Assembly: GCA_964410125.1 (NCBI GenBank)
Contig: CAYPGQ010000006.1
Span: 29,194-93,193 of the forward strand
Reading direction: 5' to 3'
Source: an uncultured Eubacteriales bacterium
Lineage (GTDB): Bacteria; Acidobacteriota; Aminicenantia; Aminicenantales; Aminicenantaceae
Length of the DNA stretch: 64,000 bases
Under the pieces are notes generated by a model. The model saw only the letters and a list, made by a program, of their open reading frames with translations, was not told the DNA's origin and searched no databases. This document shows positions 26,083 to 43,437 of the stretch, in pieces. A program made the translations under genes and the position numbers. The stretch's first letter is position 1. Every line of letters starts with the position of its first letter.

Positions 26083-26179
26083 ATGAATTTTTTATAAAGG
26101 TTCTCTCCCATATTGTGTCGGTAAACTTAAAGGCTAAAGTCTATAAGGCATGTCCTGAGCGACATTGAGGATTTAGCCT

Positions 26180-28018
26180 TCATGAACCGTCATTCGAGGG
26201 TACCCTCATCTTTGTCTTATTAATACTAGACTTACTTGTACCACCACTACCTTTAGGATTGCCTCCCTTTTTGATTATGGATTCCATCTCTCTTTCCCAC
26301 TTTCCAAACAGCAGTTTAAACGGCTCAGTTAGCTCGAATGTGATATGACCAATCTTGCGAAAATCCTCAGGCTCGATATCCTTGAATTTTGTTAGCCAGC
26401 CTTTCCTCAGTCGTATGTCTTTGAATACCTGCATAAGCAATCTACGCTGATTCCTGGGATGAAGTTTCTCATACTCCTCACCTAGGCTTACAAAGGCATC
26501 CAAAACCTGAAATAGCTCGTTGGTATCGACTTGCTTTTCCTCCGCAATTCCGTCCAGTTCTTCCTTTGCCTTTTCAATATCAGACTCGATTTGGTCTATT
26601 ACCTTTTTAATCCCTTCCGCATATTTGCCCGAATCTGCAAGGGCTAGGTTTTTATAAGCCTTAGTCTGATCCCTCTCGAGCTTATCAATTCGGTTTCGTA
26701 ACGGTTCCCTGCGTGCTTCATTGGCCTTTACCCTTTCTTCCCAATCGGCTTGCATCTGCTCAATAATGGGTTTTATTACCTTCCGGTCTTTGCTGAATTC
26801 CAAGAGCTTCATTTTAATAGCTTCATCTATTGAGCTTGTAGCCCAATACAACTGTGGGCAGTTGACTATCTTCTGTTGCTTTTTGCTGAATCCCTTTCCA
26901 ACCACCCTCACCTTTCTTTCACTAACTCCGCTGTGGTTTTCTCCGAAGTGCTTTTTATACCAATCACTGTCCCGATCTTTTTTCCCGTAGGTGCATCGAT
27001 AGCTAACTATTGTTCCTTTTGGCTTTCCATAATTTGCCGATACATCATTGGGCGTCATTCTACAACCACAGTAATCACAAGTGAGAATCCCTTGTAATTT
27101 GTGCCGATCTTGGCTTGTGCTTGCCGTATGGCGGGTGGAATACTTAACGGCTCGTTCCTCAATGATTTTCTGGACCTTCTCAAACAACGCTTTGCTAATC
27201 AATGGCTTATAGTTTCCCTTCCAAACTGCTGGCTCTCCTGTTGTTGGATGCTCCCATTGAAACTCTCCTGTATAAACCCGTTTCTTCAATAAAGAATTTA
27301 CATCCTTCCTGGATATGGGTCTCGGTTCATTCCCAGCCGTAGGCTTCATCGTTAAACCATCGTCTCTAAGCACTTTTGCCACCTCATCCCCGCTGAGATC
27401 CATATTAGAATACAGCTCGAACATCTTTTTTACCCCAGGAGCGCGTAAATCGTCGTAAACCAAGGTTTTTCCCTTGCTATCGTTCAGATATCCTGTTGGT
27501 GCAAAGCCTGGGAACTCTCCTCTTTCCAATTTCATCAGAATTGTGCGTTTTACAGCCTCGCTTTTCCTGGCTGATTCTCCCTCAGCGCGGAACCATTCTT
27601 GCTGATACAACTGCACTACCCAATATTCCGATTTGCTATTAAGGGGTGGTAATCCTGGGCATAGGATTTCCAAGAGCCCTTCCTCACGGCATTTTTGCAT
27701 AATATCAAATGTGGATTTGTGGAATACTTTGCGGGTAAGTCTGTCCTGATCGTCAACAATTATAGCTACTGTTTCTCCTTTCTTTTTCGCATAGGAAATT
27801 ATCTCATTTACAGCCGCTACAAACTTTTTTCTCTTTCCCTTAAAAGCCGATTCTGGAAACTGAAACTGTTTAACTATTTTCAGCTTTTTTTGTTTAACGA
27901 AATCGTTCAACCTTTTTAATTGAATGGGAATGCCGTAACGATCGTCTTGGAGTTGCTCTGGGGTGGAAACCCGTGCGATTATAAACCCCTCTTTGCTAAT
28001 TATTTCTTGTCTTGGCAT
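26180..28018 (-). CDS. large serine recombinase (integrase)
   Basis: The 612-aa protein has an N-terminal resolvase catalytic domain (IARVSTPEQLQDDRYG), a recombinase domain, a Cys-rich zinc ribbon (CDYCGC...C) and a coiled-coil region. Confidence 0.88.
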   Translation of the reverse strand: MPRQEIISKEGFIIARVSTPEQLQDDRYGIPIQLKRLNDFVKQKKLKIVKQFQFPESAFKGKRKKFVAAVNEIISYAKKKGETVAIIVDDQDRLTRKVFHKSTFDIMQKCREEGLLEILCPGLPPLNSKSEYWVVQLYQQEWFRAEGESARKSEAVKRTILMKLERGEFPGFAPTGYLNDSKGKTLVYDDLRAPGVKKMFELYSNMDLSGDEVAKVLRDDGLTMKPTAGNEPRPISRKDVNSLLKKRVYTGEFQWEHPTTGEPAVWKGNYKPLISKALFEKVQKIIEERAVKYSTRHTASTSQDRHKLQGILTCDYCGCRMTPNDVSANYGKPKGTIVSYRCTYGKKDRDSDWYKKHFGENHSGVSERKVRVVGKGFSKKQQKIVNCPQLYWATSSIDEAIKMKLLEFSKDRKVIKPIIEQMQADWEERVKANEARREPLRNRIDKLERDQTKAYKNLALADSGKYAEGIKKVIDQIESDIEKAKEELDGIAEEKQVDTNELFQVLDAFVSLGEEYEKLHPRNQRRLLMQVFKDIRLRKGWLTKFKDIEPEDFRKIGHITFELTEPFKLLFGKWEREMESIIKKGGNPKGSGGTSKSSINKTKMRVPSNDGS

Positions 28019-28317
28019 GGTTCCTCCTCACCCTCTTCACAAGCGATATGCTCGCGCAATTCTTTCACCGTATCAGAAAAGTTTACCATACAGCCTAGAA
28101 ACGATCCACTCTCCTCAGCTAGGTTATTCGTGATACTGGTGTGCCAATACGATCGAGCCCGTTCCCAAATCAGGTGATTTTCCCGGCTTAACTCGGTTAT
28201 AAGGTCCTTCATTTCCTCTAGCTGACCTAATATGTTGTCTCGAAGCTCCTCAAGCCTATTAACCGCTAAAACCTTGTCTTCCTTATCTAAAATAATCATG
28301 TTAATTCTCCTTTTCAA
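28000..28317 (-). CDS. hypothetical protein (island)
   Basis: The 105-aa ORF is co-oriented with the integrase gene and overlaps its start. No motif was recognised. Confidence 0.45.
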   Translation of the reverse strand: MKRRINMIILDKEDKVLAVNRLEELRDNILGQLEEMKDLITELSRENHLIWERARSYWHTSITNNLAEESGSFLGCMVNFSDTVKELREHIACEEGEEEPCQDKK

Positions 28318-28591
28318 ATAACGTGGAAATAATTGAATCGACGTCTTCAGGGATTACCGCATACAGGCTTTTGACGCCATGGACGATTCGCTGAACCAGC
28401 AGGTAATCGTTAGGAGCATGCGCCATTTGGGTAGGCCACATTTTCCTTACGGCATCCCCAAAGCCCAGCACCTTTCCAATCATTAGGGTATTTGCGCCTG
28501 TCCACTCATTCATTGCCCAGAAACGAATCTGGTCACCTTTCCTTGGCTTTTGTTTTTTCTTTTCCTCCATTGTGTTCACCATTTTGTTCAC
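28301..28591 (-). CDS. hypothetical protein (island)
   Basis: The 96-aa ORF is co-oriented and overlaps the downstream ORF by 17 nt. Confidence 0.45.
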   Translation of the reverse strand: MNKMVNTMEEKKKQKPRKGDQIRFWAMNEWTGANTLMIGKVLGFGDAVRKMWPTQMAHAPNDYLLVQRIVHGVKSLYAVIPEDVDSIISTLFEKEN

Positions 28592-28773
28592 CTTTTTATT
28601 TTATAATAAGTTTCATTATGTGAAAAATCAAGGAGCTTTCAAAAATAATTTAAAATCGGAAGGAATTAGCCCCGAAATACGCTGTATTTGGCGTTCTACG
28701 TTTATTTACGAAAAGAAGGAGTATTTATCCATAGGATAAGGTTGAGGGAATGTAAAGTGTGCGTATAGCGTGG

Positions 28774-29988
28774 CTATTTTCCGAGAGCGTCAGAAAGAAA
28801 AGAACCTTTGATATGGCTATCTATTTCAGAATCCTCGCAAGTGAATCTTATCCGGTTCCAATAAGTCCCGATTGCTTCTTCTAAGAAATGCCTTACTATC
28901 TTCTGGCCATCCTGGTTACAGATAAGCTTCTTCCTCACCTTGAGCCGAGCAGCATCATCCTTTGAATCTACAGATTCCTGTATCTTTTTTATCGTTGCTC
29001 CTAGCTTCTCATAAATTTCCAAGAGCTGAGGGAAGTATAGAAAAACCCCTTTTCTCCAGGTGATATGGAAACTGTTTAATACAGCTTCGTTTCCTTTTTC
29101 TTTGACAGCGTGCTTGAGTAAGATATTAGCCGTATACAAATCCCTAACCGCGTTCGACATGAAATCAATAACATCGCCATCCAACTGTTTGTAAAGGTTC
29201 TTGAATTCAGAATCTGTGCATTTATAATCTTTCGTAACATCTCCCTTTTCATCGATGCGATGAATTTCTTGATACTTCCAGTTGCCGTAACCACCACGCT
29301 TATCCAAAACCTCCATCTTCCCTTCCTTCTTTAAGATGCGATCCCTTTCCTGTTGCCTCTTCTTCTCTTCCTTCTTACTTTCCTCATTTTCCTGGTCTCT
29401 TTCTCGAAAGCATTTTTCATAAAATGCCTTAACAGCCGCACGAGAGATAGATGTATTTCCTGCCTTGAGTTTCTTTAGAGTTTTCTCAGGGGCATACTCA
29501 TTAATAAGCTTCACTCTGTAAATTGTGTCTGTGGAGAGACCTGCAATAGTAGCAACTTCTTTTAAAGTGTTAATAGGTTTTTCAGATTTCTTAGAAACCT
29601 TTTTTGGATGCCCTTTACCGTATTTTTTCCCTGACTCTCGTTTCTTCTGCTCGGCCCTTTTCTTTATGTAAGGTTCGAGTCTTAAAGCTAAAGTGGCCCG
29701 ATCGTAATTAGTGAGATTCCTTCTAGCGAATTGATTATAGATAATCCAGAGCCTTGCCGCTTCCCGGTTTTTAAGTTCTTTGGTCTTATCTATTACTGGG
29801 TATTTGATGTTGTGCTTTTGGCAAATATTAAACCTGTTATTTCCATCCAGGATACGCCCTTTCCATACGGTGATGGCATCCTTGCATCCTTCATTGAGGA
29901 TGCTTTGTTCCAAATCCTTATACTCTACCTTGGTGAGGGATCGCATAAGAGATTGAAACTCTTTGTCGATTTTGAATTCTTCACTCAT
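28774..29988 (-). CDS. ParB N-terminal (ParB/Srx) domain protein with an HTH and a long unknown C-terminal region
   Basis: The N-terminus has the ParB-like ILDGNNRFNICQKHNI (DGxxR) motif, a mid-protein HTH (LKEVATIAGLSTDTIYRVKLI), a K/E-rich linker and an unassigned C-terminal half of about 190 aa. Confidence 0.7.
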   Translation of the reverse strand: MSEEFKIDKEFQSLMRSLTKVEYKDLEQSILNEGCKDAITVWKGRILDGNNRFNICQKHNIKYPVIDKTKELKNREAARLWIIYNQFARRNLTNYDRATLALRLEPYIKKRAEQKKRESGKKYGKGHPKKVSKKSEKPINTLKEVATIAGLSTDTIYRVKLINEYAPEKTLKKLKAGNTSISRAAVKAFYEKCFRERDQENEESKKEEKKRQQERDRILKKEGKMEVLDKRGGYGNWKYQEIHRIDEKGDVTKDYKCTDSEFKNLYKQLDGDVIDFMSNAVRDLYTANILLKHAVKEKGNEAVLNSFHITWRKGVFLYFPQLLEIYEKLGATIKKIQESVDSKDDAARLKVRKKLICNQDGQKIVRHFLEEAIGTYWNRIRFTCEDSEIDSHIKGSFLSDALGK

Positions 29989-30216: not shown

Positions 30217-30444
30217 CTATATTTTTCTCTCTATCCAGAGACAATGATTACAAGAGTTAAATCCATTCTTTTTGGCTTCGTCTAGGTCAGTGAACATTCT
30301 TATAAAATCGGGGTTGATATTATCAATTCCACAATTAGGTTTTTCTTGTAATAGGTCGTGAACAAGATTAGTGCTCGTGTCGGCACAATATTGCCTTCCA
30401 TAAAAAGGTTTTCCTGGTCGGATTCTACGTACCATTTTCATCAC
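30217..30444 (-). CDS. hypothetical small protein
   Basis: The 75-aa ORF ends with C-x-H-C (SCNHCLW). No family was recognised. Confidence 0.4.
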   Translation of the reverse strand: MMKMVRRIRPGKPFYGRQYCADTSTNLVHDLLQEKPNCGIDNINPDFIRMFTDLDEAKKNGFNSCNHCLWIERKI

Positions 30445-30473
30445 CTCCCGTCTTTTGCCGAAAAAAAAGTTTT

Positions 30474-30926
30474 TTAACGCCCCATTGAATAAGCAGTAGG
30501 TCTCTCAAATAATATATTCGCACCCGCAAAAACAAGAAGAAAGAAAATTCCTAAGAAAAAGAAAACACCACACCACTTTATTTGATTTTTTAATTTCGTT
30601 TTGAGGGATTCAATCTCTTTACCTGTTGGTCTTCCCTCGATTGGAAAATTCCACCCCCACATTTTTTCCATAGAAGTGATGTAACTTTTCATCACTAGCA
30701 ACGAAAAAAACAACGAGACTGAAAAGCATACTAACGACACCAAAATAACTTCTTTCCAAACTGGATTCTCAAAGGCACGTTCCATAAAAGCCACCACAAG
30801 GATAAACGCACCTGTGTTGAGAGTTGTCATATTTTTGAAGTAGTCGTATTGATGTTTAAGAGACTCAAGTTGGACTTTGATAAATTCTATTGTGCGTTTT
30901 TCTTCAGTTGATAATTCTGTGCTCAT
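30474..30926 (-). CDS. hypothetical membrane protein (about 3 TM)
   Basis: Hydrophobic segments include GAFILVVAFM, VILVSLVCFSVSLFFSLLVM and CGVFFFLGIFFLLVFAGANIL. Confidence 0.55.
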   Translation of the reverse strand: MSTELSTEEKRTIEFIKVQLESLKHQYDYFKNMTTLNTGAFILVVAFMERAFENPVWKEVILVSLVCFSVSLFFSLLVMKSYITSMEKMWGWNFPIEGRPTGKEIESLKTKLKNQIKWCGVFFFLGIFFLLVFAGANILFERPTAYSMGR

Positions 30927-31153
30927 CGAGTCCTTCCTTCCTGTGGTTTAGGCAGTTCGGTGACCTTCACAGCTATCGGTAGAGTTCCCTCAAAAGCATC
31001 GAAATTGACATCAAGTATTTTCACACTCATACCCACACTCTGTTGTTCTGATGCCAGTAAGCTGCTACTGCCGACTGCAAAATCCTTCACACAAAGCCAT
31101 ATCAAACACAATGCGATAATGGTTAAAATGATTTTGGTGTACCTGTCGTTCAT
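30923..31153 (-). CDS. hypothetical small membrane-anchored protein
   Basis: It has an N-terminal TM segment (IILTIIALCLIWLCV) and a 4-nt overlap with the downstream gene. Confidence 0.45.
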   Translation of the reverse strand: MNDRYTKIILTIIALCLIWLCVKDFAVGSSSLLASEQQSVGMSVKILDVNFDAFEGTLPIAVKVTELPKPQEGRTR

Positions 31154-31209
31154 ACTGACCTCCTTTTTTTATTTTTATTAGATTCCCTTGAATATTTTTA
31201 TCTAAAATA

Positions 31210-31509
31210 TTAGTCACGACCAACAACTTTTGCTATACCAAACAAAATCATGATAACAATCCACAAACCATAAACAACTGTAATCGGAAACCAATTGCCC
31301 CAAACTGCTAGAGCATAAATTGGAGCTACTGCAAGAACCACAGGAAAGATTATCAAACTAAGAAATGCTGCCACTGGCCCTAACACTTCGTTGACGATTC
31401 GGATGGATATTACTAAGGTAAACAATCCCCCAACCATCATGATTATCATGGCTAATCCATAGATTGCATTTTCAAAAAGACCTCTAATCTTATCTATAAG
31501 TTTTCCCAT
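31210..31509 (-). CDS. hypothetical membrane protein (3 TM)
   Basis: I chose the start at ATG 31509 because an AGGAGG lies 5 nt upstream. Three hydrophobic helices are present. Confidence 0.55.
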   Translation of the reverse strand: MGKLIDKIRGLFENAIYGLAMIIMMVGGLFTLVISIRIVNEVLGPVAAFLSLIIFPVVLAVAPIYALAVWGNWFPITVVYGLWIVIMILFGIAKVVGRD

Positions 31510-31577
31510 GAAGACCTCCTTTCGCTTTGCTGGCAATATTTTAGTAATTGAGGATGAGGGTTGTCAACCTGTGTGGA

Positions 31578-32111
31578 TTACATAAACTGCGGGAATATCT
31601 TTTCATTCATAGTTCTATCCAATCGCTGGTCTTGTAGTTGCTCAAAGTAAACCTGAGCGCTTGCGATATTTTTATGCCTGAGCCAGTTTTGGATGAAGAT
31701 TGCGCTGGAGCCTTCTTTTGCCATTGCCATGGCGCATGAATGGCGTAACGAGTGAATACTATAAGCGTTCGGGATTCCGGCATTCTTGGCGTGCGTCTTA
31801 AACCGGTATTGCATCGCAGTCGTGGTTACTGGAAATAACCGTTTCTTAATTTTGTTCACCTTTACGTATTTTGCAATTTGCTGATAGAGAGCATCGTCTA
31901 AATCGTAGCTCCTCGTTCTACCATTCTTAACGCCGGTTATAATTATTTGCCTACTTTCGAAATTGATGTGCTTTACTGAAATGTTGCAAAGCTCCTGCAC
32001 CCTCAGCGCATATCGGAAACACAGTTTAAACGCTATAATATCTCGCTTGTTTTTACTGCGGACGATGGCTTTGTCTAAATCCTTGATTTGTTGTTGTGTG
32101 AGGTATTTCAT
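31578..32111 (-). CDS. short tyrosine recombinase (catalytic domain only, 177 aa)
   Basis: The catalytic residues appear as ALRVQEL (R), GVKNGRTRS (K), HSLRHS (H-x-x-R) and LRHKNIASAQVY (H...Y). There is no N-terminal core-binding domain. Confidence 0.8.
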   Translation of the reverse strand: MKYLTQQQIKDLDKAIVRSKNKRDIIAFKLCFRYALRVQELCNISVKHINFESRQIIITGVKNGRTRSYDLDDALYQQIAKYVKVNKIKKRLFPVTTTAMQYRFKTHAKNAGIPNAYSIHSLRHSCAMAMAKEGSSAIFIQNWLRHKNIASAQVYFEQLQDQRLDRTMNEKIFPQFM

Positions 32112-32882
32112 TTTAGAGTCTCCTTTAAATTGATTTGTTTATGGCTAGTCGTATACCGATATCTGTGTGTAGGGCGTTGTTCGGTATTGTGTACATATTT
32201 GTATGATCTCGCGCTATTTTGCTCCTGAGCTATATATTTGCATCGGTGTGTTGTGGAAAAGGTTTTTGTTCGAACGTGCCGCATCTTCTTCCCCGAAAAC
32301 AACTTAGCCATGATTTATATTATGATACTTCTACAGAAACGCCAAGGAAAATCTTTTCAGGATTCTATTATTCTATGAACGGATTCTAATCCGCTATATC
32401 ATAGCCGACCTGAAATAGTGCTTCATATTACCCCTCAATTCCAGCCCCATCTGCCAGATATAACACCGGCTTTTCGTTAGTGAAAGAGCCTCCTCCTGGC
32501 TCTGCTTGATATAACCCTCCATGTATTAGGGTGGAGCCCCATACAATCTACCCTTATACAGTCGTAGAGGGAGCCAGACTAATACCTCTTCCCAGATATA
32601 GAACTGTTATTGATTGTCCCAGATATGGGCAAATTGATTCGGTGTGCTTACTCTTCTTTACAGACTCAACCGATTCTTTACGATAGTAGACCGATTATGA
32701 AGGTTACGCCACCCCATATAACGTCGAGCTTTCTCTTTTTTCTTTTCTCTCATTCTATCTCTCATCATAGCCACTGAAGAGCTACTCTTTTACTGGCTAT
32801 TTACAAGATTCCAAATGGATCCTACTTATTCTATATTGAATATTAAATGAATATAAATCTTATACATAATATGACTACCCCT

Positions 32883-33446
32883 TTAATAGGGAGCCCTCTC
32901 CTCTATATCCCCTTTCCAGGTTCTTGGTCCAATTCTCTTTCCTTCCTCAATTCTCTTTTCCCTTATCCTTCTTACCCTCACCTGAAACCTCTTATCGGTC
33001 GTTCTTTCTTTAATGAATTTCTCTAAACTCTTTGCCTCAAATCGAACGCCAAAACCGACTTTCAAATAAGGCAGCTCTCCCTTATATATCCACTTATAAA
33101 AAAAGCTGTCACTTAAATCATATCTCCGCATTGCCACTGGGATATTAATCAGGGATTCTATCACCGGACCTTTCTCCAGCTCTATCTCCCTATACACTGC
33201 GATCATGCATTCCTCTTTAAGCCATTTATTTACTTCTCCGATTCTCCACATCCATTGCTTATACTGGGGACTTGAAAACTCATCCGGTTTTGGCAGGTAT
33301 TTATCTCGATGCCATCTATTCAAAGTCTCTCTTGTGATCCTAAAATATAGACTCAGTTCTCGCATGCTGAGAAGGTGTCCGCTTAACAGAGCTACTCTAA
33401 TCATCTTCCTCTTCTTTATCTCTGTGAAAATAATCAGGGGGCGCAA
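32883..33446 (-). CDS. DNA-binding protein with two excisionase/MerR-like HTH_17 segments (candidate excisionase/RDF)
   Basis: The two segments are MRELSLYFRITRETLNRWHRDKYLPKP and MRRYDLSDSFFYKWIYKGELPYLKVGFGVRF. The start is uncertain; internal ATGs lie at 33404 and 33365. Confidence 0.6.
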   Translation of the reverse strand: MRPLIIFTEIKKRKMIRVALLSGHLLSMRELSLYFRITRETLNRWHRDKYLPKPDEFSSPQYKQWMWRIGEVNKWLKEECMIAVYREIELEKGPVIESLINIPVAMRRYDLSDSFFYKWIYKGELPYLKVGFGVRFEAKSLEKFIKERTTDKRFQVRVRRIREKRIEEGKRIGPRTWKGDIEERAPY

Positions 33447-33594
33447 TTTGCGGATATGGCTTGTTTTGCCAGATCGTGCCGCCTTTTACTATTCTGTTTA
33501 GTTCGGTAAGCCTATCTTCAACACAAAGGATGCAGTCGCCGAGCAAATAGTGTCGATGCTCTAGGTCTTCGTTCTTATCAAATAAAGCCACCAA
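33397..33594 (-). CDS. hypothetical small protein
   Basis: The 65-aa ORF is co-oriented. It overlaps the longest version of the downstream ORF. Confidence 0.3.
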   Translation of the reverse strand: MVALFDKNEDLEHRHYLLGDCILCVEDRLTELNRIVKGGTIWQNKPYPQIAPPDYFHRDKEEEDD

Positions 33595-33776
33595 TTCTGC
33601 CTTTATTTTTCTAACACTTTTATTACTTCTTTCATTCTTAAAACTCCTTCATTTTCTCTCTTCATAGTTTTGGATGAGGGGGCTACGCTTGCAGCCCCCT
33701 CGATTGCTTGGAAACTTAGCACGTAACGCCTCTTGGTAAAACGTTACATTATCTGTAACAAAGACCCATTATCTTA

Positions 33777-33968: not shown

Positions 33969-34026
33969 TTTATTCTCCTCTAATCTCGTTTATGAGCCCC
34001 GTACTCGCAACGCTCATAACTATAAA

Positions 34027-34809: not shown

Positions 34810-34835
34810 TTTTTATTCTCCTTTGTTTATAGTTT

Positions 34836-35183: not shown

Positions 35184-35205
35184 TTTTTATCTCCTTAATA
35201 ACTAT

Positions 35206-36047: not shown

Positions 36048-36437
36048 TTATTTCTCTCCAAATTTTAAACCGCGTATAAACCCATGAAGAAACGCTTCAT
36101 TATCGGTCGTCCAATTTGCTTCCTCGTCAACGCTTGGAACTATAACCTCCGCGACTTCTAAAGCCAACGTTTGGAATTCCTCATCGGTGCAAGCGTCCAT
36201 CGCCTCCAGCGCTAGCCGTAACGTTTTTTCCTCCCGGATGGCGGTTTGGTGTAAACGCCATAATCCAAGCGCTTCTTTTAACAGCTCGCCCACGTCCGTA
36301 TTCTGTGGCAATTGCTCAAATGCCTTTTCTCGCTCTTCAAACTCTTCAAACGCCTTGCCGTAACGCTCGATAAGATCTTCGAGCACGATATGTAATTGGT
36401 CTTGATTCTTAATTAAACACTTTTCTTCATCTGCCAT
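36048..36437 (-). CDS. hypothetical acidic protein
   Basis: The 129-aa ORF is E/D-rich and helical. No motif was recognised. Confidence 0.45.
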   Translation of the reverse strand: MADEEKCLIKNQDQLHIVLEDLIERYGKAFEEFEEREKAFEQLPQNTDVGELLKEALGLWRLHQTAIREEKTLRLALEAMDACTDEEFQTLALEVAEVIVPSVDEEANWTTDNEAFLHGFIRGLKFGEK

Positions 36438-36481
36438 TGGTTATTCCCTGATATATATAAGCCAGGATTTTTCGAAATCCA

Positions 36482-37372
36482 TTATTTTTCGCGATTTTCA
36501 TGGAAAATATTTTTAATCTTTTTAATCAGCGTTTTTGTCTTTTCAGTGTTTCTCATAACTTCTAATTTATTCCGACTGGGCGCGGCATATCCTCTAATCC
36601 TTTGCGAATCAGGCACCACAATATAGTTTTTATAAAACATTCTCATTTCCCGTATCGCAATTTTGCTTTCTTCTTTGTCCATCTTGTATAGTTTAGCTGC
36701 CTCATTTTTCAGTGCTGTATTTGCCAGATCCTCCCTCGACTCAAACTCAAGCGAGATAAGATTTTGGAAATCTTTTACTGAAAAAATTATAGCTTTAAAG
36801 AAAAGCGTTGACGGGAAACTATAAGCTAGGAACCTAGCCATCAAAGGGTCGCTGGCAAATTTCTTTATCAAATAAGCTTTGAGGTATCGCGGATCAGCAG
36901 AATGCGCTAATGCCTTTTCCAAAGCATCCTGTGAAACTATATCCAAAATGCCATCCTGATTTTTTGTATTCTGACGCTGAATTGTCCCAGCCTTATTCGA
37001 ATCAGCTATTGCACCAAGACCATCCTCACCTTCTATAATTGGTAAATTTCCGATACTTGAAACTATATTTAACCTCGTTTTAAATGTCCTGAGAAGCCAG
37101 TATGCTTTGATATCAAATTTCTTGTATAGTTTTTCGTTCTCCAAAGTTTGTAATGCTACTCGATTTTTCTTTACCCATTTGCCCTGTGAGAATAGCTCGT
37201 CGAAAAGCATCTGCTCGGCATCCACATCCCTATATCGCAATACATACTCGACCTTTCGCCGAATATAGTTTTGGATTTCTTTTAGCTCTGTTTTGTTGAT
37301 CTTTATTTTGCGCTGGTTTAAGATAACTTTGCGGATTGCTGAGATAATCAGTCTAGAGTTGTAGGACGGCAT
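36482..37372 (-). CDS. hypothetical protein
   Basis: The 296-aa ORF is co-oriented. No motif was recognised. Confidence 0.5.
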   Translation of the reverse strand: MPSYNSRLIISAIRKVILNQRKIKINKTELKEIQNYIRRKVEYVLRYRDVDAEQMLFDELFSQGKWVKKNRVALQTLENEKLYKKFDIKAYWLLRTFKTRLNIVSSIGNLPIIEGEDGLGAIADSNKAGTIQRQNTKNQDGILDIVSQDALEKALAHSADPRYLKAYLIKKFASDPLMARFLAYSFPSTLFFKAIIFSVKDFQNLISLEFESREDLANTALKNEAAKLYKMDKEESKIAIREMRMFYKNYIVVPDSQRIRGYAAPSRNKLEVMRNTEKTKTLIKKIKNIFHENREK

Positions 37373-37698
37373 TGTTATTTCCTGGTTATTTACCTATTAG
37401 CGCGGTATAGGAAGCACTTTATCGGTTGCTCCATATATCCTTAACACTGAGACATTTATTTCCTTTTAAAATTGAAGATTAAACCGTTGCCAGTTTACTG
37501 GTAATGGTTTTACACCAGCCGGTTTCCGGATGGTGATAGAGTATCGGCTAATCTCTTATTTTGGATAGCTATCAAAAACACCGCTTCCTTCTCTTTAATT
37601 CTTATTAAAGAGTATTAATACTCTTCTTAATACTATATATATATTTACGTTTATTCTTATATGGTAAGGATATATCTTACTCATGACTAAGATATATC

Positions 37699-38124
37699 TT
37701 AATCACTGCCTTCCTTTTCCTTACGGAATTTCTCTTCCCACTCCCATTTTTCAACCGCAATATTGGCTTGCTCAACGTACCCATTCATATCTTTTTCAGA
37801 AATTACTTCATTCTTAAAGCCATGAAGGATAGTAAGATTTGTTTTCATTACTCCTCTTCGATATCTGGTAGCCCAACCCTTCTTTTCTAACTCGCGCCAG
37901 AGTGTGGAAACGTGCTGCTCGCTTTTATTCATAACCTTGCTAAGTTTTGCATTACTTGCCCACGTTATTCCTTCAAAATTTGCAATCCTTGCAGCTACGA
38001 CGTATAAAAAGCGGGCAGATACCCCAACATCCGTATCGTCGATTACCTCGTACGGAATTTGCGCGTTATTGGTTTTGAATCTGTTGACTAAAGCAAGCGG
38101 TTTATTAGAGCTGTATTTCTTCAC
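37699..38124 (-). CDS. winged-helix DNA-binding protein (replication-initiator/regulator-like)
   Basis: ARFLYVVAARIANFEGITWASNAKLSKVMNKSEQHVSTLWRELEKKGWATRY is a typical wHTH segment. It lies next to a palindrome-rich non-coding region. Confidence 0.55.
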   Translation of the reverse strand: MKKYSSNKPLALVNRFKTNNAQIPYEVIDDTDVGVSARFLYVVAARIANFEGITWASNAKLSKVMNKSEQHVSTLWRELEKKGWATRYRRGVMKTNLTILHGFKNEVISEKDMNGYVEQANIAVEKWEWEEKFRKEKEGSD

Positions 38125-38413
38125 GGACTAAACTCTCCTCTTCGATTAAAGTGGCTACGGCTTCCCTTCCCCGAGCAACCACTTCTGTTGTTCGCTCATT
38201 CTTTTTCCAGCGCGTCTTGAATCGAATGGCAACTATATCCCCATCCTCCAAACGAAAAGCATGATATCTTGCTTTCAATGCCTCATCCAGGTTATCGGGT
38301 GTACTTGCAATCGCAAAGCGTTGATTATTCTTACAATGGTCGTGAAGAAAATCAACAAGGCATAGAGTGTCCTGGAAGATGAAACTCTCCTTTTGGAAAT
38401 TAAATCTAACCAT
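38105..38413 (-). CDS. hypothetical protein
   Basis: The 102-aa ORF overlaps the wHTH gene start by 20 nt. Confidence 0.45.
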   Translation of the reverse strand: MVRFNFQKESFIFQDTLCLVDFLHDHCKNNQRFAIASTPDNLDEALKARYHAFRLEDGDIVAIRFKTRWKKNERTTEVVARGREAVATLIEEESLVREEIQL

Positions 38414-38761: not shown

Positions 38762-40033
38762 TCAGTAAATAGGGGATGTATTTATTTGAAAATGTTTATT
38801 TCTAACTGTATCAATTCGCTTTTCTAAGATATCTTTTCCAATTTCTTTTATGCTCTCTTCGAAGATATGTTTAACTGCATTCGATAATGAATACCCCTTC
38901 CTCTGTAATATATATATAGCAGCAAAATTATCTAAAGAAAATCTTTGGAATAAATCTAATTTACCGTAAGCTTCAATATTTTCAATCTCATAAAATGGCA
39001 TATCTTGATAATCTAATAAGATATCTCTGGAAAACATTAAAAGCGATAATAAATTTTCCTTGGATGCTTTTTCATCGACAATTGGATTCTTATTATATTC
39101 TACATCTTCAACTCCAGCTGTTATTGCTCCAAGCCTACGGACAATACATCCATAACAAGTTCCATCATGTTTTCCAAAGCGCTGAGTAATACAAGAATAA
39201 GTCTTTTTAAATTCCCCCTTAAATTTTGAAAGAGCCATTACTTCAGCTTTAGTCATATTTTCGAAGGGAGTAATAATTTTAATCTTCTTCTTAAGTAATA
39301 ACTCAAGAACTTTATGCGAGATTTCGACAGTCACTGGATGGGTTGTCATCGTGACTTCATCATACGGCCCAAATCTTGGTTGATACATAGTGGGTCCACA
39401 TTCAGAAACAATAAGAGTATCAGAATTCAGCAAGCTCATCCATGCTCCAGCTGATATCATATATAGAAAGCCTCTTAATTGAGAATATCCTCCTTTAGTT
39501 AAAGATGGTACATAAATTGTCTTCAGCTTAATTCCAGTTAGAGATAAAAAATCCTTTAATAAAGAATTTACTATATGTATATTCCACGCTTGGTCTGAGT
39601 GAGCACAAAATATCCCCACAACATTATTGAAATATTCTTTAGCCCAAGTTATTCCACTAAAAGAATCTATGCCCCCAGAAAAAAGAACAGATATATACGG
39701 ACTCTCTGGTTTTTTATAATCGAACTTCTTTTTATTCAACTTCTTTTTTGATTGAATAAAATTAATATCTACATCTTTTAAAAGAATATAAGATATCAAC
39801 TCAGAAAGAATATTTTTTAATTCACTCTTGTGATTTTTTGTAAACCGCTCTATATGAAATTGACTAATTCTATCTCTTTTTGCTAATTTTTCTAATTCAA
39901 AAATACCATAAGCGATTGAGAGAATATCTCGAGATTTTATATATTCTTCATAGTTAAAAATTCGCATTTGAGGAGCTTGAGAAAGCCTAAGATGAAATTC
40001 ATGGATTTCATCAGAATCTGATTTTTTATTCAT
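38762..40033 (-). CDS. QueC-like PP-loop ATP pyrophosphatase with an unknown N-terminal domain of about 110 aa
   Basis: The PP-loop VLFSGGIDSFSGITWA matches QueC VVFSGGQDSTTCLFWA. RGFLYMISAGAW...LIVSEC, ITPFENMTKAEV and the C-terminal Cys cluster SCITQRFGKHDGTCYGCIVRRLG resemble the QueC zinc site. Confidence 0.8.
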   Translation of the reverse strand: MNKKSDSDEIHEFHLRLSQAPQMRIFNYEEYIKSRDILSIAYGIFELEKLAKRDRISQFHIERFTKNHKSELKNILSELISYILLKDVDINFIQSKKKLNKKKFDYKKPESPYISVLFSGGIDSFSGITWAKEYFNNVVGIFCAHSDQAWNIHIVNSLLKDFLSLTGIKLKTIYVPSLTKGGYSQLRGFLYMISAGAWMSLLNSDTLIVSECGPTMYQPRFGPYDEVTMTTHPVTVEISHKVLELLLKKKIKIITPFENMTKAEVMALSKFKGEFKKTYSCITQRFGKHDGTCYGCIVRRLGAITAGVEDVEYNKNPIVDEKASKENLLSLLMFSRDILLDYQDMPFYEIENIEAYGKLDLFQRFSLDNFAAIYILQRKGYSLSNAVKHIFEESIKEIGKDILEKRIDTVRNKHFQINTSPIY

Positions 40034-40302
40034 CGTCTGAAAGCTCTTAGTGCGGCACCTATAGAAGAATTAAAGGCTGTTCTGAGAAGAGTCTCATCTT
40101 CTAAATTTGAACCATGCTTTTGCATATAATATCGAGCAGCATGTTTTGCAATCCCATCAAAATTTCGTTTCAGAAGTGCGCTATCACCTTTCTGTAAGAG
40201 TGCAAAATAAGGTGAGTTTTCTTTGGATTTTATCATGGCATGACATTCTTCTCGAAATATTTCTTCTATTAAGAAAGAGCACTCCTCACAAGTAACACTC
40301 AT
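40030..40302 (-). CDS. hypothetical 90-aa protein (cassette gene 3)
   Basis: It has 4-nt ATGA overlaps with both neighbours and N-terminal cysteines (TCEEC...EEC). No family was recognised. Confidence 0.55.
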   Translation of the reverse strand: MSVTCEECSFLIEEIFREECHAMIKSKENSPYFALLQKGDSALLKRNFDGIAKHAARYYMQKHGSNLEDETLLRTAFNSSIGAALRAFRR

Positions 40303-40664
40303 TTTTTTATTCTCTTTAGAGCCCTACTCACTGCGTCTACAACTCCAATATCAATAACTCTATTGGATATTAGCCTTTCTTCCTCTTTTTTCTCGGCCCA
40401 ATCGACTCTTACTTTTCTGCTTATTTCTTTTATCACTCTGAGTTCCTGTGGAGGGTATTTATCTTTTATATCGGATAATAATTTCTTCGAAAAAAGATAT
40501 ATTTTAACTATATCTCGGTGTTCAGGTATTAATTTGACAGAACTTCGAGCAATGCCACCAATATCTCTTTCTTTCAAAGATTTTGTAAGCGCATCTCTTT
40601 TTTCTAGAGCTCTTTGACTTTCTCCCACAACTTCCCTAATTGAATATGCTCTGCGGCCACCCAT
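40299..40664 (-). CDS. hypothetical 121-aa basic protein starting Met-Gly-Gly (cassette gene 2)
   Basis: It has a TAATG overlap with the upstream gene and an ATGA overlap with the downstream gene. No family was recognised. Confidence 0.55.
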   Translation of the reverse strand: MGGRRAYSIREVVGESQRALEKRDALTKSLKERDIGGIARSSVKLIPEHRDIVKIYLFSKKLLSDIKDKYPPQELRVIKEISRKVRVDWAEKKEEERLISNRVIDIGVVDAVSRALKRIKK

Positions 40665-41203
40665 TATAATTTCTCCATTAAATTAATAAACTCATCTTTA
40701 TATTTTCTTTCAGCGCTATTAAGATGGGAATTAAAACATAACAGACATACAGAAAAAAGCACACAAATAAAAATAGGTATAAATTCTCCGGGAATTTTTA
40801 TAATTAGAATTTTTATTTTGCAATTATCTTCAATGAAATAATTAACTGTTCCTGATAAAAAAAATGAAATTGTTAATGCGAATATGAGTTTATATTTAAT
40901 CTTGTATAGAGATTCTATTTTACCTCTTTCCTTATCTAAACTAATAAATTTTCCTATTATATTCACATCCTGAACTTCTTGGAGAGTTTCCTCTTTTAAT
41001 AAGGCATTTAATGCTTTTAATTTCTTTATAGGAGAAGTTTGAGCTCTAAGCAGTGGTCTAATTTTTTCCCACTTAATATTGCGCTTCATACTAAAATCCC
41101 TTTCCGCCTCTACTGTGTCTTTATGCCAGCTTTTTATTTGCTCACTCCAACCTATCAACACCAATAAAAGAATTACCCCAGTGCCTATTAAAAATTCATC
41201 CAT
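40664..41203 (-). CDS. hypothetical 3-TM membrane protein (cassette gene 1; candidate effector)
   Basis: The TM segments are FLIGTGVILLLVLIGW, LIFALTISFFLSGTVNYF and FIPIFICVLFSVCLLCF, with a charged helical loop between TM1 and TM2. Confidence 0.6.
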   Translation of the reverse strand: MDEFLIGTGVILLLVLIGWSEQIKSWHKDTVEAERDFSMKRNIKWEKIRPLLRAQTSPIKKLKALNALLKEETLQEVQDVNIIGKFISLDKERGKIESLYKIKYKLIFALTISFFLSGTVNYFIEDNCKIKILIIKIPGEFIPIFICVLFSVCLLCFNSHLNSAERKYKDEFINLMEKL

Positions 41204-41944: not shown

Positions 41945-41999
41945 TTCATACAGAAATGAGGAGGGCGGTTGAGTTATTATCTTAATTTTGGAGGGTAAA

Positions 42000-42326
42000 A
42001 TGGGATGGGTACCAATTAAATGTTATCTTTGTGATAAAGATGCAGAACAATGGAATTATGATCCCCCTGATTTTATGGTGAGGTCTAAACTTTCTTCAGA
42101 TAAACCTTGTGAATGTGGATTTTATAAACTTATTAGCCATCTAATAAAATTTAGAATGGATGACAAGAAAAAATTGCTTACAAAAAACAAGACTCCTCTT
42201 ACAGAAGCACAAAAAAAGAGTCTCGCTGATTTTGTTAAAAAAAATCAAGATCCAACAGGCAAAAATCCAGTGACGATACATTTAGCCAAGTATGACAATC
42301 TTATCTTACGAAGTTTAGAGGATTAA
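42000..42326 (+). CDS. hypothetical Cys-containing protein (108 aa) upstream of the HEPN gene
   Basis: ATG 42000 follows a GGAGGG RBS. CYLC...CEC is a possible zinc-binding site, and the C-terminal half is K-rich. Confidence 0.55.
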   Translation: MGWVPIKCYLCDKDAEQWNYDPPDFMVRSKLSSDKPCECGFYKLISHLIKFRMDDKKKLLTKNKTPLTEAQKKSLADFVKKNQDPTGKNPVTIHLAKYDNLILRSLED

Positions 42327-42402
42327 ATGACCTTCTTCAGGAGTGGTCGCCTCACTAGATAGACGGATGAGGAGGAAGGGAATTCTCAGGAAAGGATAAA
42401 AA

Positions 42403-42930
42403 ATGAAAAGAAAAAAATTATTACTAAATGGAGAAACTTTTGATGAAGACTTGGCAAAAAAGTTTCATGATGAACTTAATGGAGAATCAATAAGGGCAGC
42501 TGTAATTTGTGGCTTTGCTTATATAGAGAGTCTGCTAAAAGAATTATTACAAAGAAAATTGGTTAAAGACAAAGAAACGTTTAAACGTATTGATATAATG
42601 GGACTCGAAAAAATATTAAGTCTGTGTTTTTGTTTAGGAATTATTAGCAAAGAAGAAAGGAGTGATTTAAAGATCTTAAGTAAGATAAGAAATGAATTTG
42701 CACATGATTGGGAAGTTAATAAATTTGAAAATATCACTATTGGAAACAAATTAGACAATCTATATATTGTTACTCATATAAAAATATGCAGAAACGAAAA
42801 ATCCTTTCCTATTTATAATTCAAAGGAGAAATATCTCTCAGCCATAAATGCATACTACTTAATATTCCATTGGAGACTTCTTCAGAATGGCAAAAGAATA
42901 AAAGCGCGCGAAAATTATTATGCTATATAA
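42403..42930 (+). CDS. HEPN-superfamily protein (MtlR/DUF4145-like)
   Basis: The R-x4-H motif occurs in LSKIRNEFAHDW. The helical N-terminal part ESIRAAVICGFAYIESLLKELL is typical of MtlR-like HEPN domains. Confidence 0.7.
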   Translation: MKRKKLLLNGETFDEDLAKKFHDELNGESIRAAVICGFAYIESLLKELLQRKLVKDKETFKRIDIMGLEKILSLCFCLGIISKEERSDLKILSKIRNEFAHDWEVNKFENITIGNKLDNLYIVTHIKICRNEKSFPIYNSKEKYLSAINAYYLIFHWRLLQNGKRIKARENYYAI

Positions 42931-43437
42931 GACACAATCGCGGATACACGGGCGAGAGAATAATCGCCATTTACCCAATATAGTCCCAAAAATGTCGAGA
43001 GACTGAAAATCTCTATCGACCATTACTCTAACAACTCTTTCAGCTCAGATAAATTCCTAATAATATTTGGATTGGTGTATCAAGTATTCTTTTTAGGAAT
43101 TCCTTTATCAACTGTTAAGCTAGAATTGTTTGAAGCTCTCTGAGCGTATTATGCACCCTAATCGATGAGTTAATAAAGTTCAAAAATTCGGGTACCCGAT
43201 AGAGTCGGGCGGCAAGGATGTTTTGAGCACGACTTTGTTTGAGAATAAAAGATCCGGACAAGCTCGGGAACAGAGGCTGGAGTGGAGGAGATTGGGAGTT
43301 AACGTGCGCAGTTCCGCAACCGCCGAGAAGGATGGTGAGTGAATGGCGTTAAAAATCGTCACTAAAGTGAAGGACATGTCTGATAGAGTATGGATACATA
43401 ATCAAAAAAGGTCCACGCAATATAAAAGAGAAGCTTT

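Follow-up and report, generated by a model that had tools for sequence, protein, structure and literature searches.

The window, a 64,000-nt stretch of DNA, contains an insertion between rpsF and pth that interrupts one copy of a MITE-like repeat of ~350 bp. Approximately 75 copies of this repeat are dispersed in the genome (G000) of the host, which is uncultured and represented by metagenome assemblies. The insertion is bounded by two copies of the 8-bp perfect palindrome GGGTACCC, the attL core (26198-26205), which on the minus strand supplies the recombinase codons R-V-P, and the attR core (43190-43197); this palindrome is the sole identity between the left and right junctions. From attL core to attR core the mobile element measures 16,992 bp, in agreement with the original prediction of an integrated block of ~17 kb. 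The predicted right limit (43190) is exactly where the attR core begins, whereas the predicted left limit (26083) has to be moved to the attL core at 26198. The block is also more A+T-rich than its flanks, as had been noticed, with a G+C content of 0.381 over the whole element compared with 0.474 and 0.446 in the flanks and 0.446 in the genome; within the element, the backbone (26206-38420) has a value of 0.404 and the distal part (38421-43189) one of 0.322. The coding fraction is 0.83, all listed open reading frames (ORFs) are open, and of the 30 ORFs about half lack an assignable family or function.

The left arm of the repeat (26075..26197), which forms the left half of attB, is host DNA that aligns with other G000 copies and with G005, in which the repeat is uninterrupted at the rpsF-pth locus. 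The right arm (43198..43440), the right half of attB, is likewise host DNA, and a small hairpin, CCCGATAGAGTCGGG, begins within the core; the entire repeat folds into a long hairpin (z = -3.2). Comparison with related genomes, proposed earlier as a check on whether the block is shared at this locus, showed that it is not: rpsF adjoins pth without the element in five of five same-genus genomes, and the element interior has no match in any of 40 related genomes. The empty site was found in two public contigs from the same environment (L086 and L089), where the left arm joins directly to 43198 onward, both flanks are 100% identical and the overlap is exactly the 8-bp core, a scarless empty allele. 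Sample ERZ25073485 contains both alleles, the empty one at a coverage of 15 and the element contigs at 3.5-3.8. Given that occupied and empty alleles with identical flanks coexist, the element must have been mobile recently. The SPAdes-style (NODE_-named) ENA element contigs stop exactly one k-mer past the core (47+8 = 55), as do the Logan contigs (22+8 = 30), the k values being deduced from the contig end positions; this is expected with attB reads in the same assembly graph, and the pattern argues that attP was too rare to split the graph in the samples seen. Every contig with a visible flank carries the element at one and the same locus, so that no spread between sites or cells is seen for this exact element. 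Targeting of the repeat nevertheless recurs: two more serine recombinase genes in the same genome (on contigs C76 and C10) end within repeat copies, and in another genome a recombinase remnant with 91% identity ends at the same core beside a different repeat copy. The dispersed-repeat target adds to what had been predicted.

The left end of the element encodes a large serine recombinase of 612 aa (26180..28018, minus strand) with Pfam Resolvase, Recombinase and Zn_ribbon_recom matches. Its ORF crosses attL, the last five codons and the stop being host repeat sequence. Since positions 26083-26197 belong to the repeat, the stop codon (26180) lies outside the element; the terminal position predicted for the gene holds, except that attL falls inside its 3' end. 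In the circular form the ORF has a computed length of 631 aa, based on the C-terminal tails, and because attP is located within the 3' end of the gene, the final residues of the enzyme are exchanged upon integration. Alignment A2 shows an invariant R-V-S-T..Q nucleophile motif and, judged by its sequence, the recombinase is intact. Two small minus-strand proteins of 105 and 96 aa (28000..28591), without a family match in Pfam or PHROGs, accompany this module, and their homologues (35-53% identity) adjoin other serine/tyrosine recombinase pairs on G000 contigs C76, C10 and C172. A tyrosine recombinase of 177 aa (31578..32111, minus strand; PF00589, 5e-26) consists of the catalytic domain only. 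It is 80% identical in the related contigs L030 and L031, 51% in the more distant L039 and 38-42% beside the C76 and C10 recombinases, with a dN/dS of 0.09, and is a possible multimer resolvase or directionality partner. Pfam and PHROGs confirmed both predicted recombinases.

The system resembles those of phiC31, Bxb1, TP901-1 and SCCmec-type recombinases in its Resolvase, Recombinase, zinc ribbon and coiled coil domains, its short identity core, the adjoining integrase gene and the inverted-repeat attP arms, here a TTAATAA(A)G motif in inverted orientation 10-11 bp from the core on each side. It differs in its 8-bp core, which is perfectly palindromic and has a centre (TA) that is itself palindromic, in the placement of attP within the recombinase coding sequence, and in targeting a dispersed, mobile repeat instead of a unique gene.

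The remaining backbone genes are all on the minus strand. A 404-aa protein (28774..29988) has an HTH-like middle and an N-terminal domain that weakly resembles ParB/Srx proteins (DGNNR motif; phrog_21315, 1e-8; phrog_66, 5e-6). The ParB-like label given to it earlier draws weak support from the motif and from its three best PDB profile matches, all ParB proteins (E 0.19-0.32), and none from Pfam, where it has no match; a homologue is present in the C76 island. A Cys-rich 75-aa protein (phrog_28292, 7e-8) follows together with three small proteins (150, 76 and 108 aa) predicted from hydrophobic stretches to be membrane proteins, which have no family match (30217..31536). Beyond the tyrosine recombinase lies a candidate regulatory, non-coding region of 570 bp (32312..32882) with short direct and inverted repeats; it has no Rfam match and shows ~75% nucleotide identity with L030 and L031 over most of its length. 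The adjacent 187-aa protein (32883..33446) matches HTH_17 (PF12728, 2e-11) in two stretches, in the manner of excisionase, AlpA and MerR-type proteins (phrog_66, 2e-11). Among the backbone proteins it is the best conserved (83-87% identity with L030 and L031; dN/dS 0.07-0.12) and on sequence grounds a candidate regulator or excision factor. It is followed by small conserved proteins of 65 and 63 aa, an RRM protein of 81 aa (34027-34272; RRM_1, 1e-21) and a second 81-aa protein (33397..34514), whose order is kept in L030 and L032 with 52-68% identity. Two paralogues of 114 and 115 aa (34465..35183; alignment A4; dN/dS 0.14-0.20) fill the position that is occupied by the major capsid gene in relatives. 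Past the protease gene described below are two proteins of no known family (129 and 296 aa; 36048..37372), the larger of which has 7 relatives among 1.84 billion representatives. The next stretch (37373..37698) is non-coding and contains palindromes of the GATATATC type more than once (related sites at 37433-37449, 37662-37683 and 37684-37705), which makes it a candidate operator or origin. It adjoins a 141-aa wHTH protein (HTH_36, 4e-6) with an overlapping 102-aa ORF (37699..38413); matches to phrog_270 (replication initiation, 4e-10) and phrog_186 (DnaD-like loader, 5e-7) suggest that the wHTH protein resembles the DNA-binding N-terminus of replication initiators. These profiles agree with the earlier recognition of a two-HTH excisionase-like protein, an RRM protein and a wHTH protein beside a palindrome-rich non-coding region.

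The sole head gene of the element is an orphan prohead (head-maturation) protease of T4 gp21 type, 230 aa in length with a charged C-terminal tail (35206..35898, minus strand). The prediction of a prohead-protease-like protein was upheld by matches to phrog_207 (2.6e-23) and PF03420 (2.7e-6); residues H72, H85 and S125 are invariant in alignment A1, and dN/dS is 0.05-0.16. The protein shares ~30% identity with the 'prohead core scaffold protease' of T4-like cyanomyoviruses, and the nearest proteases in cultured phages are those of T4-like myoviruses. In phage-like loci that encode distant homologues, gp23-like capsid genes come next. Searches with Pfam and PHROGs detected no capsid, portal, terminase, tail or lysis family in the element, consistent with the earlier reading, and family profile searches detected no relaxase or secretion family. 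No small terminase, pac/cos function, primase or helicase was found in the element, and no gp23-like capsid gene anywhere in the assembly. A scan of all six frames for the Walker A motif gave no hit; the element therefore encodes no P-loop NTPase of any kind and no packaging or extrusion ATPase. We also modelled the two best candidates for a hidden capsid protein with AF2. The 115-aa protein was predicted to form an alpha/beta sandwich (pLDDT 80.5; best PDB match, E 0.02) and the 296-aa protein an all-helical, two-domain structure (pLDDT 70.6) for which Foldseek gave no match under E 0.3 against PDB or BFVD. The predicted folds are not capsid folds, that of the 115-aa protein not being HK97, and on these models both were ruled out as capsid proteins. 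The profile searches, Walker A scan and structure predictions thus yielded the protease as the only virion gene. Of the two findings that the earlier reading had named as fatal to it, a block common to all related genomes and structural virion genes, neither was obtained. An autonomous small virus or virus-like element, with its structural proteins among the unassigned ORFs (the membrane proteins or the 296-, 129- and 115-aa proteins), would agree with the large share of ORFs without a family, with the clustering of small membrane proteins and with the rarity and structural isolation of the 296-aa protein. We consider it very unlikely, given the lack of a packaging or extrusion ATPase, the two modelled folds, and the pairing of protease homologues elsewhere with a gp23-like capsid gene that is absent here.

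The protease, the 114/115-aa paralogues, the RRM and double-HTH proteins and the short tyrosine recombinase form a backbone whose order is kept in three metagenomic contigs (L030, L031 and L032), all of them capsid-less, with identities of 52-87% and dN/dS values of 0.05-0.2. In L039 the protease gene is followed by a gp23-like capsid gene (PF07068, 1e-44); this contig further encodes a 753-aa Walker-A protein, two excisionase-like proteins, the same tyrosine/serine recombinase pair and, at its far end, a HEPN-NB-ARC-TPR gene. The phage-type protease, the excisionase-like and initiator-like genes, the integrase at one end and the capsid gene of this relative could be taken to indicate what is left of a small temperate phage after the loss of its structural genes. 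The conserved gene order and purifying selection argue that the element is not a decaying prophage, and its open ORFs and coding fraction, perfect att sites and scarless empty allele also speak against a remnant, as does the lack of a recognisable portal, terminase or tail gene in the capsid-bearing L039 itself. We regard this explanation as improbable; in the original choice between phage satellite and degraded prophage, the former fits and the latter finds no support.

The distal part begins with four overlapping minus-strand genes (38762..41203) in the lowest-G+C part of the element (0.32), the last of which encodes a QueC-like PP-loop protein of 423 aa (PF06508, 6e-11; PADLOC QueC, 5e-10, and QatC, 4e-7); its partner proteins have no family matches. 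From its sequence this cassette is candidate defence cargo. Between 41206 and 42930, two minus-strand ORFs (80 and 68 aa) are followed by a divergent control region, in which three direct repeats are spaced by 10 bp (41691-41729), and by plus-strand genes for a protein of 112 aa and an MtlR/HEPN-like one of 175 aa (PF05068, 3.5e-6), none with a PADLOC match. Defence-like families thus do lie at the distal end, where candidate defence cargo had been proposed, and the cargo role itself is inferred. In the same genome, the sister island C76 shares the recombination module, but its cargo is of a restriction-modification-like kind, comprising a DNA methylase, an 830-aa protein, a HARE-HTH protein and an AAA ATPase, and it has no phage head gene. 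A possible, though less probable, explanation is a defence or genomic island moved only by its serine recombinase without phage packaging, in which the phage-derived protease and its neighbours work to the benefit of the host, for instance by disrupting the head assembly of T4-type phages during infection, and transfer between cells is rare and passive (transformation, vesicles or generalised transduction). The sister island, the defence-like cargo, the single locus in the contigs seen and the failure to find a terminase, pac function or primase are all in line with it. A phage-linked cycle is a better fit to the conserved, selected protease block, to the initiator-like wHTH protein beside an origin-like region and to L039 with its protease, capsid gene and helicase-like protein, and the recent mobility of the element also weighs against such an island.

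With a head-protease gene and no capsid, packaging or motor genes, the element would seem to parasitise a large phage. We favour, at a probability of roughly 0.55, an intact, currently mobile integrative element that lives as a phage satellite of a large T4-type helper and carries defence-like genes distally. The serine recombinase inserted the element at the 8-bp core through conservative site-specific recombination. For such a satellite we infer the following cycle. The element would remain integrated until a signal triggers excision, with the double-HTH protein as candidate directionality factor or regulator, unless the former is supplied by the helper phage. Replication might start from the palindrome-rich region, with the wHTH initiator acting alongside enzymes of the host or the helper and multimers being resolved by the short tyrosine recombinase, and exit would be in particles of the helper, whose prohead the gp21-type protease, with its charged tail, may enter or disturb. 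The QueC-like cassette and the HEPN/MtlR-like pair may provide the host with anti-phage cargo. Because about half of the proteins have no assignable function, a non-phage route of transfer or another function of the protease is also possible.

Among known systems, the Vibrio PLEs and the marine VEIMEs are probably the closest in logic. Integration of PLEs employs a large serine recombinase and is directed to the VCR repeat, which is present in >100 copies (PMC5481146). Both PLEs and the present element are ~17-18 kb in size, consist mostly of genes that cannot be assigned, have a large serine recombinase gene at one end and integrate into a short repeat of about 100 copies (VCR in PLEs, MITE-like here); both have HTH/MarR-type regulators and an initiator with an origin, and both lack capsid, terminase and tail genes. 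The phage on which PLEs depend is a large virulent myovirus, and the type of the protease points to such a phage here as well (PMC5481146, PMC6002521). This likeness is one of layout, as Pfam and PHROGs give generic domains only. Unlike in PLEs, the target repeat is unrelated to VCR and lies outside any integron, a gp21-type prohead protease, a tyrosine recombinase and an RRM protein are present, the recombinase ORF spans attP, and the host is an uncultured bacterium. Subgroups of VEIMEs possess both serine and tyrosine recombinases and no capsid gene (PMC9618062); VEIMEs are defined as concatemers within virus particles, and they are compared here by their described features. PICIs differ in having a tyrosine recombinase as integrase in place of a serine recombinase, as well as a primase-replicase, small terminase and capsid-morphogenesis gene, and the cfPICI core (capsid, portal, head-tail adaptors, terL, terS and HNH) is absent here apart from the protease, which is of T4 gp21 type (Peptidase_S77) in contrast to that of PICIs and cfPICIs. 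The element nevertheless follows their module order (integrase, regulator, replication, head-related genes and accessory cargo), a head serine protease is present in some PICIs, and L039, with its protease and capsid gene, recalls cfPICIs (PMC10085698).

The region from 25000 to 44800 of the window was compared with 40 related genomes. G+C content falls from 0.45–0.50 in the flanks to 0.31–0.43 at about 26–43 kb, and the flanks found matches in all five same-genus genomes, whereas the interior found none in any of the 40. The A+T-rich block inserted between rpsF and pth, as described in the original prediction, was therefore confirmed both by the G+C profile and by this comparison; it is not common to relatives, and those lacking it yielded the exact junctions. 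The rpsF–pth spacing is 12–100 bp in four of the same-genus genomes (G001 to G004). In the fifth, G005, the left flank extends to window position 26205 and the right flank begins at 43190, with an overlap of 8 bases. The sole identity between the junctions in the alignment is GGGTACCC, at 26198–26205 (attL) and 43190–43197 (attR). Given that this 8-bp core marks both junctions, the element measures 16,992 bp, and the left limit originally placed at 26083 lay 115 bp too far to the left. Mean G+C is 0.381 for the element versus 0.446 for the genome, with 0.404 for the backbone (26206–38420) and 0.322 for the distal part (38421–43189). Thirty ORFs cover 83% of the block, 28 of them on the minus strand. 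The genes dnaB-rplI-rpsR-rpsF lie on the left, and pth-rplY-prs and a tRNA-Gln gene on the right. Both ribosomal protein L9 (24338–25090, 250 aa) and ribosomal protein S6 (25350–25838, 162 aa) carry a long COOH-terminal extension, the Pfam L9 domains stopping at residue 145 and the S6 domain at residue 92.

The sequence interrupted by the element is a dispersed repeat of ~350 bp with terminal inverted repeats of ~20 bp (GGTTCTCTCCCATATTGTGT), which folds as a long hairpin through its terminal and subterminal inverted repeats (z = -3.2). The assembly to which the window belongs contains ~75 copies at 70–95% identity, including the interrupted copy (26075–26205 plus 43198–43440), C22:25855–26369, C109:6184–6479, C21:41262–41612 and ~70 others, and many copies are present in relatives, same-genus genomes included. 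A 48-nt core of the repeat retains 85–92% identity even in other genera. Among the copies, many are reduced to a core-only form (positions 84–296 of the repeat), and some have a different small hairpin, or in contig C22 a 100-bp insert, exactly at the position of attB, the empty target; no second copy with an intact attB was found within the assembly. Rfam gave no match for the repeat and no credible match for the element. The repeat is itself a variable insertion, being absent from the rpsF–pth locus in G002 and G003. A separate repeat of ~120 nt (25963–26082 and 47786–47902), also noted in the first reading of the sequence, sits between the rpsF leader and the large repeat; in the alignment it is present at the rpsF locus of the window's genome and of G005 and missing from G002 and G003.

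The 612-aa protein encoded at the left end of the element has the catalytic serine domain (Resolvase, PF00239), the Recombinase domain (PF07508) and the zinc ribbon (PF13408) of a large serine recombinase. Residues R16-V17-S18..Q22, which form the R-V-S-T..Q nucleophile motif, and the Cys pairs are invariant in an alignment of its relatives. The core encodes recombinase residues R-V-P, and beyond it the host repeat supplies the final five codons along with the stop codon (26180). In the circular form, the ORF would continue across the junction into the far end of the element, giving a predicted protein of 631 aa, which places attP (predicted as 43140–43197 joined to 26206–26260) within the gene. 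An inverted TTAATAA(A)G motif occurs in the attP arms, 10–11 bp from the core, which is itself perfectly palindromic around a TA centre. Serine integrases take their polarity from a non-palindromic central dinucleotide; with a palindromic core, either the crossover could be off-centre or insertion could be possible in both orientations. A scan of the genome contigs with the single recombinase protein gave no match, a scan with the alignment returned solely unrelated serine recombinases (24–30% identity), and the best match within a family-level set of 96 genomes was 35% identical.

At least 20 public contigs, drawn from several samples in JGI, ENA and SRA, carry the exact 612-aa recombinase, and the flank is rpsF in every case where it is visible; samples with the element include ERZ25073474, ERZ25073485 and the SRA runs that yielded L077–L079. 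A look-up of the identical RpsF protein identified two contigs with rpsF immediately after pth, L086 (81 kb, coverage of 42) and L089 (coverage of 15). Both are 100% identical to window positions 44830–43190 and 26205–23350, with alignments that overlap by exactly the 8-bp core, and they are the predicted attB, scarless and from the same population. One sample (ERZ25073485) holds both the empty allele and element contigs, at a coverage of 3.5–3.8, and therefore represents a mixed population. An ENA contig of 17,094 bp ends at window position 26151, its length corresponding to the element plus 47 nt per side; another contig stops at 43244, 47 nt past the core (55 in total with it), and three Logan contigs stop at 26176, 22 nt outside the core (30 in total with it). 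These totals fit a k-mer of 55 in the SPAdes-style contigs with NODE_ names and, for Logan, k-1 with k = 31, both values of k being inferred from the end positions. Breaks one k-mer past the core agree with the pattern expected when attB reads share the flanks in the assembly graph, and they imply that attP is too scarce to split that graph. The locus shows the features of conservative insertion, namely a short core at both junctions, a scarless empty site and no long direct repeats. These results established that the insertion is precise, recent and polymorphic in natural populations, and they point to the serine recombinase as its mediator. Public contig L071, otherwise 99.985% identical, lacks 30 bp (41569–41598) within a 68-aa ORF (41408–41614), an indel polymorphism inside the element population. 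The variant 5' ends of two further public contigs (L075:1–75 and L080:1–75; Ga0111032_1020858 and Ga0078745_1020284) are not biological: Illumina (Nextera) adapter and index bases have been joined there to element DNA at 28204, an assembly artefact in the public records.

The same repeat has been targeted elsewhere. Contigs C76 and C10 of the assembly encode serine recombinases ~26–28% identical to that of the window, each adjoining a homologous short tyrosine recombinase gene, and the two share the tail ...GMSAAPLRI*, for which a copy of the dispersed repeat supplies the codons, at about its position 69. The C76 island (C76:1815–17809) is a ~16-kb insertion relative to G004 that begins at the terminal inverted repeat of the repeat. 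It encodes a serine recombinase of 596 aa, with an ORF that terminates within the repeat, a tyrosine recombinase of 200 aa and a ParB-like protein of 347 aa, together with cargo resembling restriction-modification or defence genes (an N6/N4 DNA methylase, an 830-aa orphan, a HARE-HTH protein and an AAA ATPase); C76:15534–17411 is duplicated on contig C57 at 91% identity. C10:1–4015 encodes a protein similar to the 96-aa protein of the element, a tyrosine recombinase and a 567-aa serine recombinase that ends inside a repeat copy. Homologues of the 105-aa and 96-aa proteins of the element and a tyrosine recombinase are encoded by C172:1400–4051, and DNA identity between C76:6065–6774 and C172:1400–2115 is 86%. 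A JGI contig from a close relative (L094) carries a 5'-truncated recombinase remnant with 91% DNA identity to the window's gene; its homology stops exactly at the core (there GGATACCC), beyond which lie a short repeat copy, with its terminal inverted repeat 40 nt away, and then genes orthologous to those of contig C145. PLEs 1, 3, 4 and 5 use a large serine recombinase to insert into the VCR repeat, which has >100 copies (PMC5481146), and the recurrent targeting seen here is, by analogy, the same logic. Given that the C76 island combines a shared recombination module with restriction-modification-like cargo and has no phage genes, it lends support to the element being a defence island moved by the recombinase alone, an explanation that we regard as possible but rather doubtful.

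From 43.2 kb to 26.2 kb, the element begins with two plus-strand genes forming a HEPN/MtlR-like pair (PF05068, 3.5e-6), then a divergent control region in which three repeats are spaced by 10 bp, and small ORFs. These are followed by a cassette of four overlapping genes ending in that for a QueC-like PP-loop protein (PF06508, 6e-11; PADLOC QueC, 5e-10, and QatC, 4e-7) and by genes for a 102-aa ORF product and a 141-aa wHTH protein that matches the NH2-termini of replication initiators (phrog_270, 4e-10). The wHTH protein had been predicted to lie beside a palindrome-rich non-coding region, and in addition to the initiator-like match we found three related GATATATC palindromes in the neighbouring 326-bp non-coding stretch. 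Next come orphan proteins of 296 and 129 aa, the protease, a pair of paralogues (115 and 114 aa), an RRM protein (1e-21) preceded by a protein of 81 aa and followed by two of 63 and 65 aa, a double-HTH_17 protein of 187 aa, a partly conserved non-coding region of 570 bp, a 67-aa ORF and a 177-aa tyrosine recombinase consisting of the catalytic domain alone (5e-26). An invertible promoter next to this recombinase gene was considered for the 10-bp inverted repeats at 32312 and 32850 and found no support, one such pair being at about chance expectation in this A+T-rich stretch and the related contigs all being collinear. The left part encodes three small membrane proteins, a 75-aa Cys-rich protein, a 404-aa protein, the 96-aa and 105-aa proteins that accompany the recombination module in the sister islands, and finally the serine recombinase. 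Family matches upheld the original identification of both recombinases and of the two-HTH, RRM and protease genes; the 404-aa "ParB-like" protein is present, but its resemblance to ParB is weak and N-terminal.

No capsid, portal, terminase, tail, lysis, relaxase or secretion family was detected among the 30 ORFs with Pfam and PHROGs, and a six-frame scan of the element revealed no Walker A motif. The element has no P-loop NTPase and is therefore without a terminase, packaging ATPase, helicase, ParA or coupling protein. Two proteins, of 296 and 115 aa, were judged the best candidates for a disguised capsid protein and were modelled with AlphaFold2. The 296-aa protein, which has seven relatives among 1.84 billion representatives, gave an all-helical, two-domain model (pLDDT of 70.6) with no Foldseek match below an E value of 0.3, and was rejected as a hidden capsid, portal or terminase protein; its sigma-factor-like matches (T4 gp55, RpoE-like) have E values above 1 and are not evidence. 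The 115-aa protein gave a small alpha/beta sandwich (pLDDT of 80.5; best match, E = 0.02), and this fold, the absence of profile matches and the intact, conserved ORFs led us to reject the 114-aa and 115-aa paralogues as capsid remnants. The predicted lack of capsid, portal, terminase, tail and lysis genes thus held in the family searches, the Walker A scan and both structure models. Nor was a gp23-like capsid gene found anywhere in the 90%-complete assembly. The element does not carry the gene set of a tailed prophage. With regard to the core sets of PICIs and cfPICIs (PMC10085698), a serine-type integrase and an HTH_17 regulator are present with no primase, helicase or terS family, and the protease alone is found with none of the capsid, portal, head-tail adaptor/connector, terL, terS and HNH genes. 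The set of conjugative or mobilisable elements is likewise lacking (no relaxase, T4SS family or Walker A motif). As judged from its predicted proteins, the element is unable to package, conjugate or unwind DNA by itself. An autonomous virus of unknown kind is the least probable explanation that we considered, given the lack of a P-loop NTPase and of capsid folds in the two modelled proteins.

The protease matches phrog_207 (2.6e-23) and Peptidase_S77 (PF03420; 27.5 bits against a cut-off of 27), and its candidate catalytic residues H72, H85 and S125 are invariant among its relatives. A profile score above the curated threshold and the conserved His and Ser residues point to a prohead protease of the T4 gp21 type. 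In cultured phages, its nearest homologues (~30% identity) come from T4-like cyanomyoviruses, where the name is "prohead core scaffold protease", and from a jumbo phage, and more distant homologues (29–34%) in metagenomic or viral loci have a gp23-like capsid gene 1.4–3 kb downstream. The protease of the element is thus a predicted orphan of the T4 type and its sole putative head gene.

Three short metagenomic contigs (L030, L031 and L032) share the gene order protease, 115-aa protein(s), RRM protein, 63/65-aa proteins, double-HTH protein, 67-aa ORF and tyrosine recombinase, with identities of 52–87% to the element. Across the protease, the 115-aa and 114-aa paralogues, the double-HTH protein and the tyrosine recombinase, dN/dS ranges from 0.05 to 0.20, which marks the layout without a capsid gene as one that is maintained rather than decaying. 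A degraded prophage, one of two possibilities raised in the original prediction, is at odds with a backbone order conserved under purifying selection, and we consider it very unlikely. Word-based searches with the protease and with the double-HTH protein returned only three homologous proteins apiece, and the element family is rare, with three or four instances among 5.8 billion clustered proteins. A distant element on a 108-kb contig (L039) is 43% identical in the protease, 51% in the tyrosine recombinase and 43% in the serine recombinase, and has a gp23-like major capsid gene directly after the protease gene (PF07068, 1e-44; phrog_138, 4e-46). Genes for a 753-aa Walker A protein, a 385-aa orphan and a MerR-like protein lie upstream, and two excisionase-like and two SnoaL-like genes downstream. 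The gene content of L039 therefore makes the lineage look phage-derived with a satellite-type layout, in which the branch of the window gave up the capsid gene. At the far end of L039, in the same position as the HEPN-like cargo of the window, a minus-strand gene (2009–4297) encodes a 762-aa protein of defence-type architecture, comprising Swt1-like HEPN, NB-ARC/STAND ATPase and TPR repeats.

We favor the interpretation that the element is a phage satellite, with a probability of roughly 55%. Such a satellite would spread inside the particles of a large T4-type helper phage, would replicate from the palindrome region with the wHTH protein, and might use its protease to enter or disturb helper proheads, with the distal cassettes serving as defence cargo. 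It resembles PLEs in mechanism, size, repeat targeting and use of a large serine recombinase, although its target repeat is unrelated to VCR; the likeness is one of mechanism by analogy, with PHROGs and Pfam giving only generic domains for the element. To our knowledge, serine-recombinase satellites that land in dispersed repeats are known experimentally only from the PLEs of Vibrio cholerae. The element provides a fully defined example in an unrelated, uncultured bacterium, with exact attL, attR, attB and predicted attP, occupied and empty alleles in nature and a small conserved gene set. Its gene content is compatible with that of VEIME subgroups which combine serine and tyrosine recombinases and lack a capsid gene (PMC9618062); VEIMEs are defined by their occurrence as concatemers in virus particles. 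PLEs and these dual-recombinase, capsid-less VEIME subgroups are the closest known systems. More tentatively, the element may be the first recognisable member of a new satellite family from an uncultured, sediment-type lineage. Its ancestors would have been of the T4 type and capsid-forming, as L039 suggests, and would have lost the capsid gene and kept an active gp21-type protease as a means of entering or re-programming the heads of a large virulent helper; its attP-spanning recombinases would have specialised on different positions of one MITE-like repeat family offering ~75 potential landing pads per genome, and with its perfect palindrome the core may even permit insertion in both orientations. 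A selected orphan T4-type protease, where a relative has both protease and capsid genes, is a lead to satellite exploitation of large lytic phage heads, and the recombinase with its 8-bp palindromic core should make a compact, testable integration system. Were the element not a satellite, it would be a clean case of a defence-carrying island with a mobile repeat as its landing site.

A second head-maturation protease is encoded elsewhere in the assembly (C85:9–1286; 370 aa; phrog_207, 4e-39) and has a long, charged COOH-terminal tail. C85 found no support as a resident helper prophage, since PHROGs detected nothing else structural and the contig breaks off next to the protease. At that contig end, the protease gene is followed by a homologue of the gene for the 63-aa protein of the element. 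This pairing recurs in metagenomic contig L042, and the 63-aa protein may be a functional partner of the protease family.
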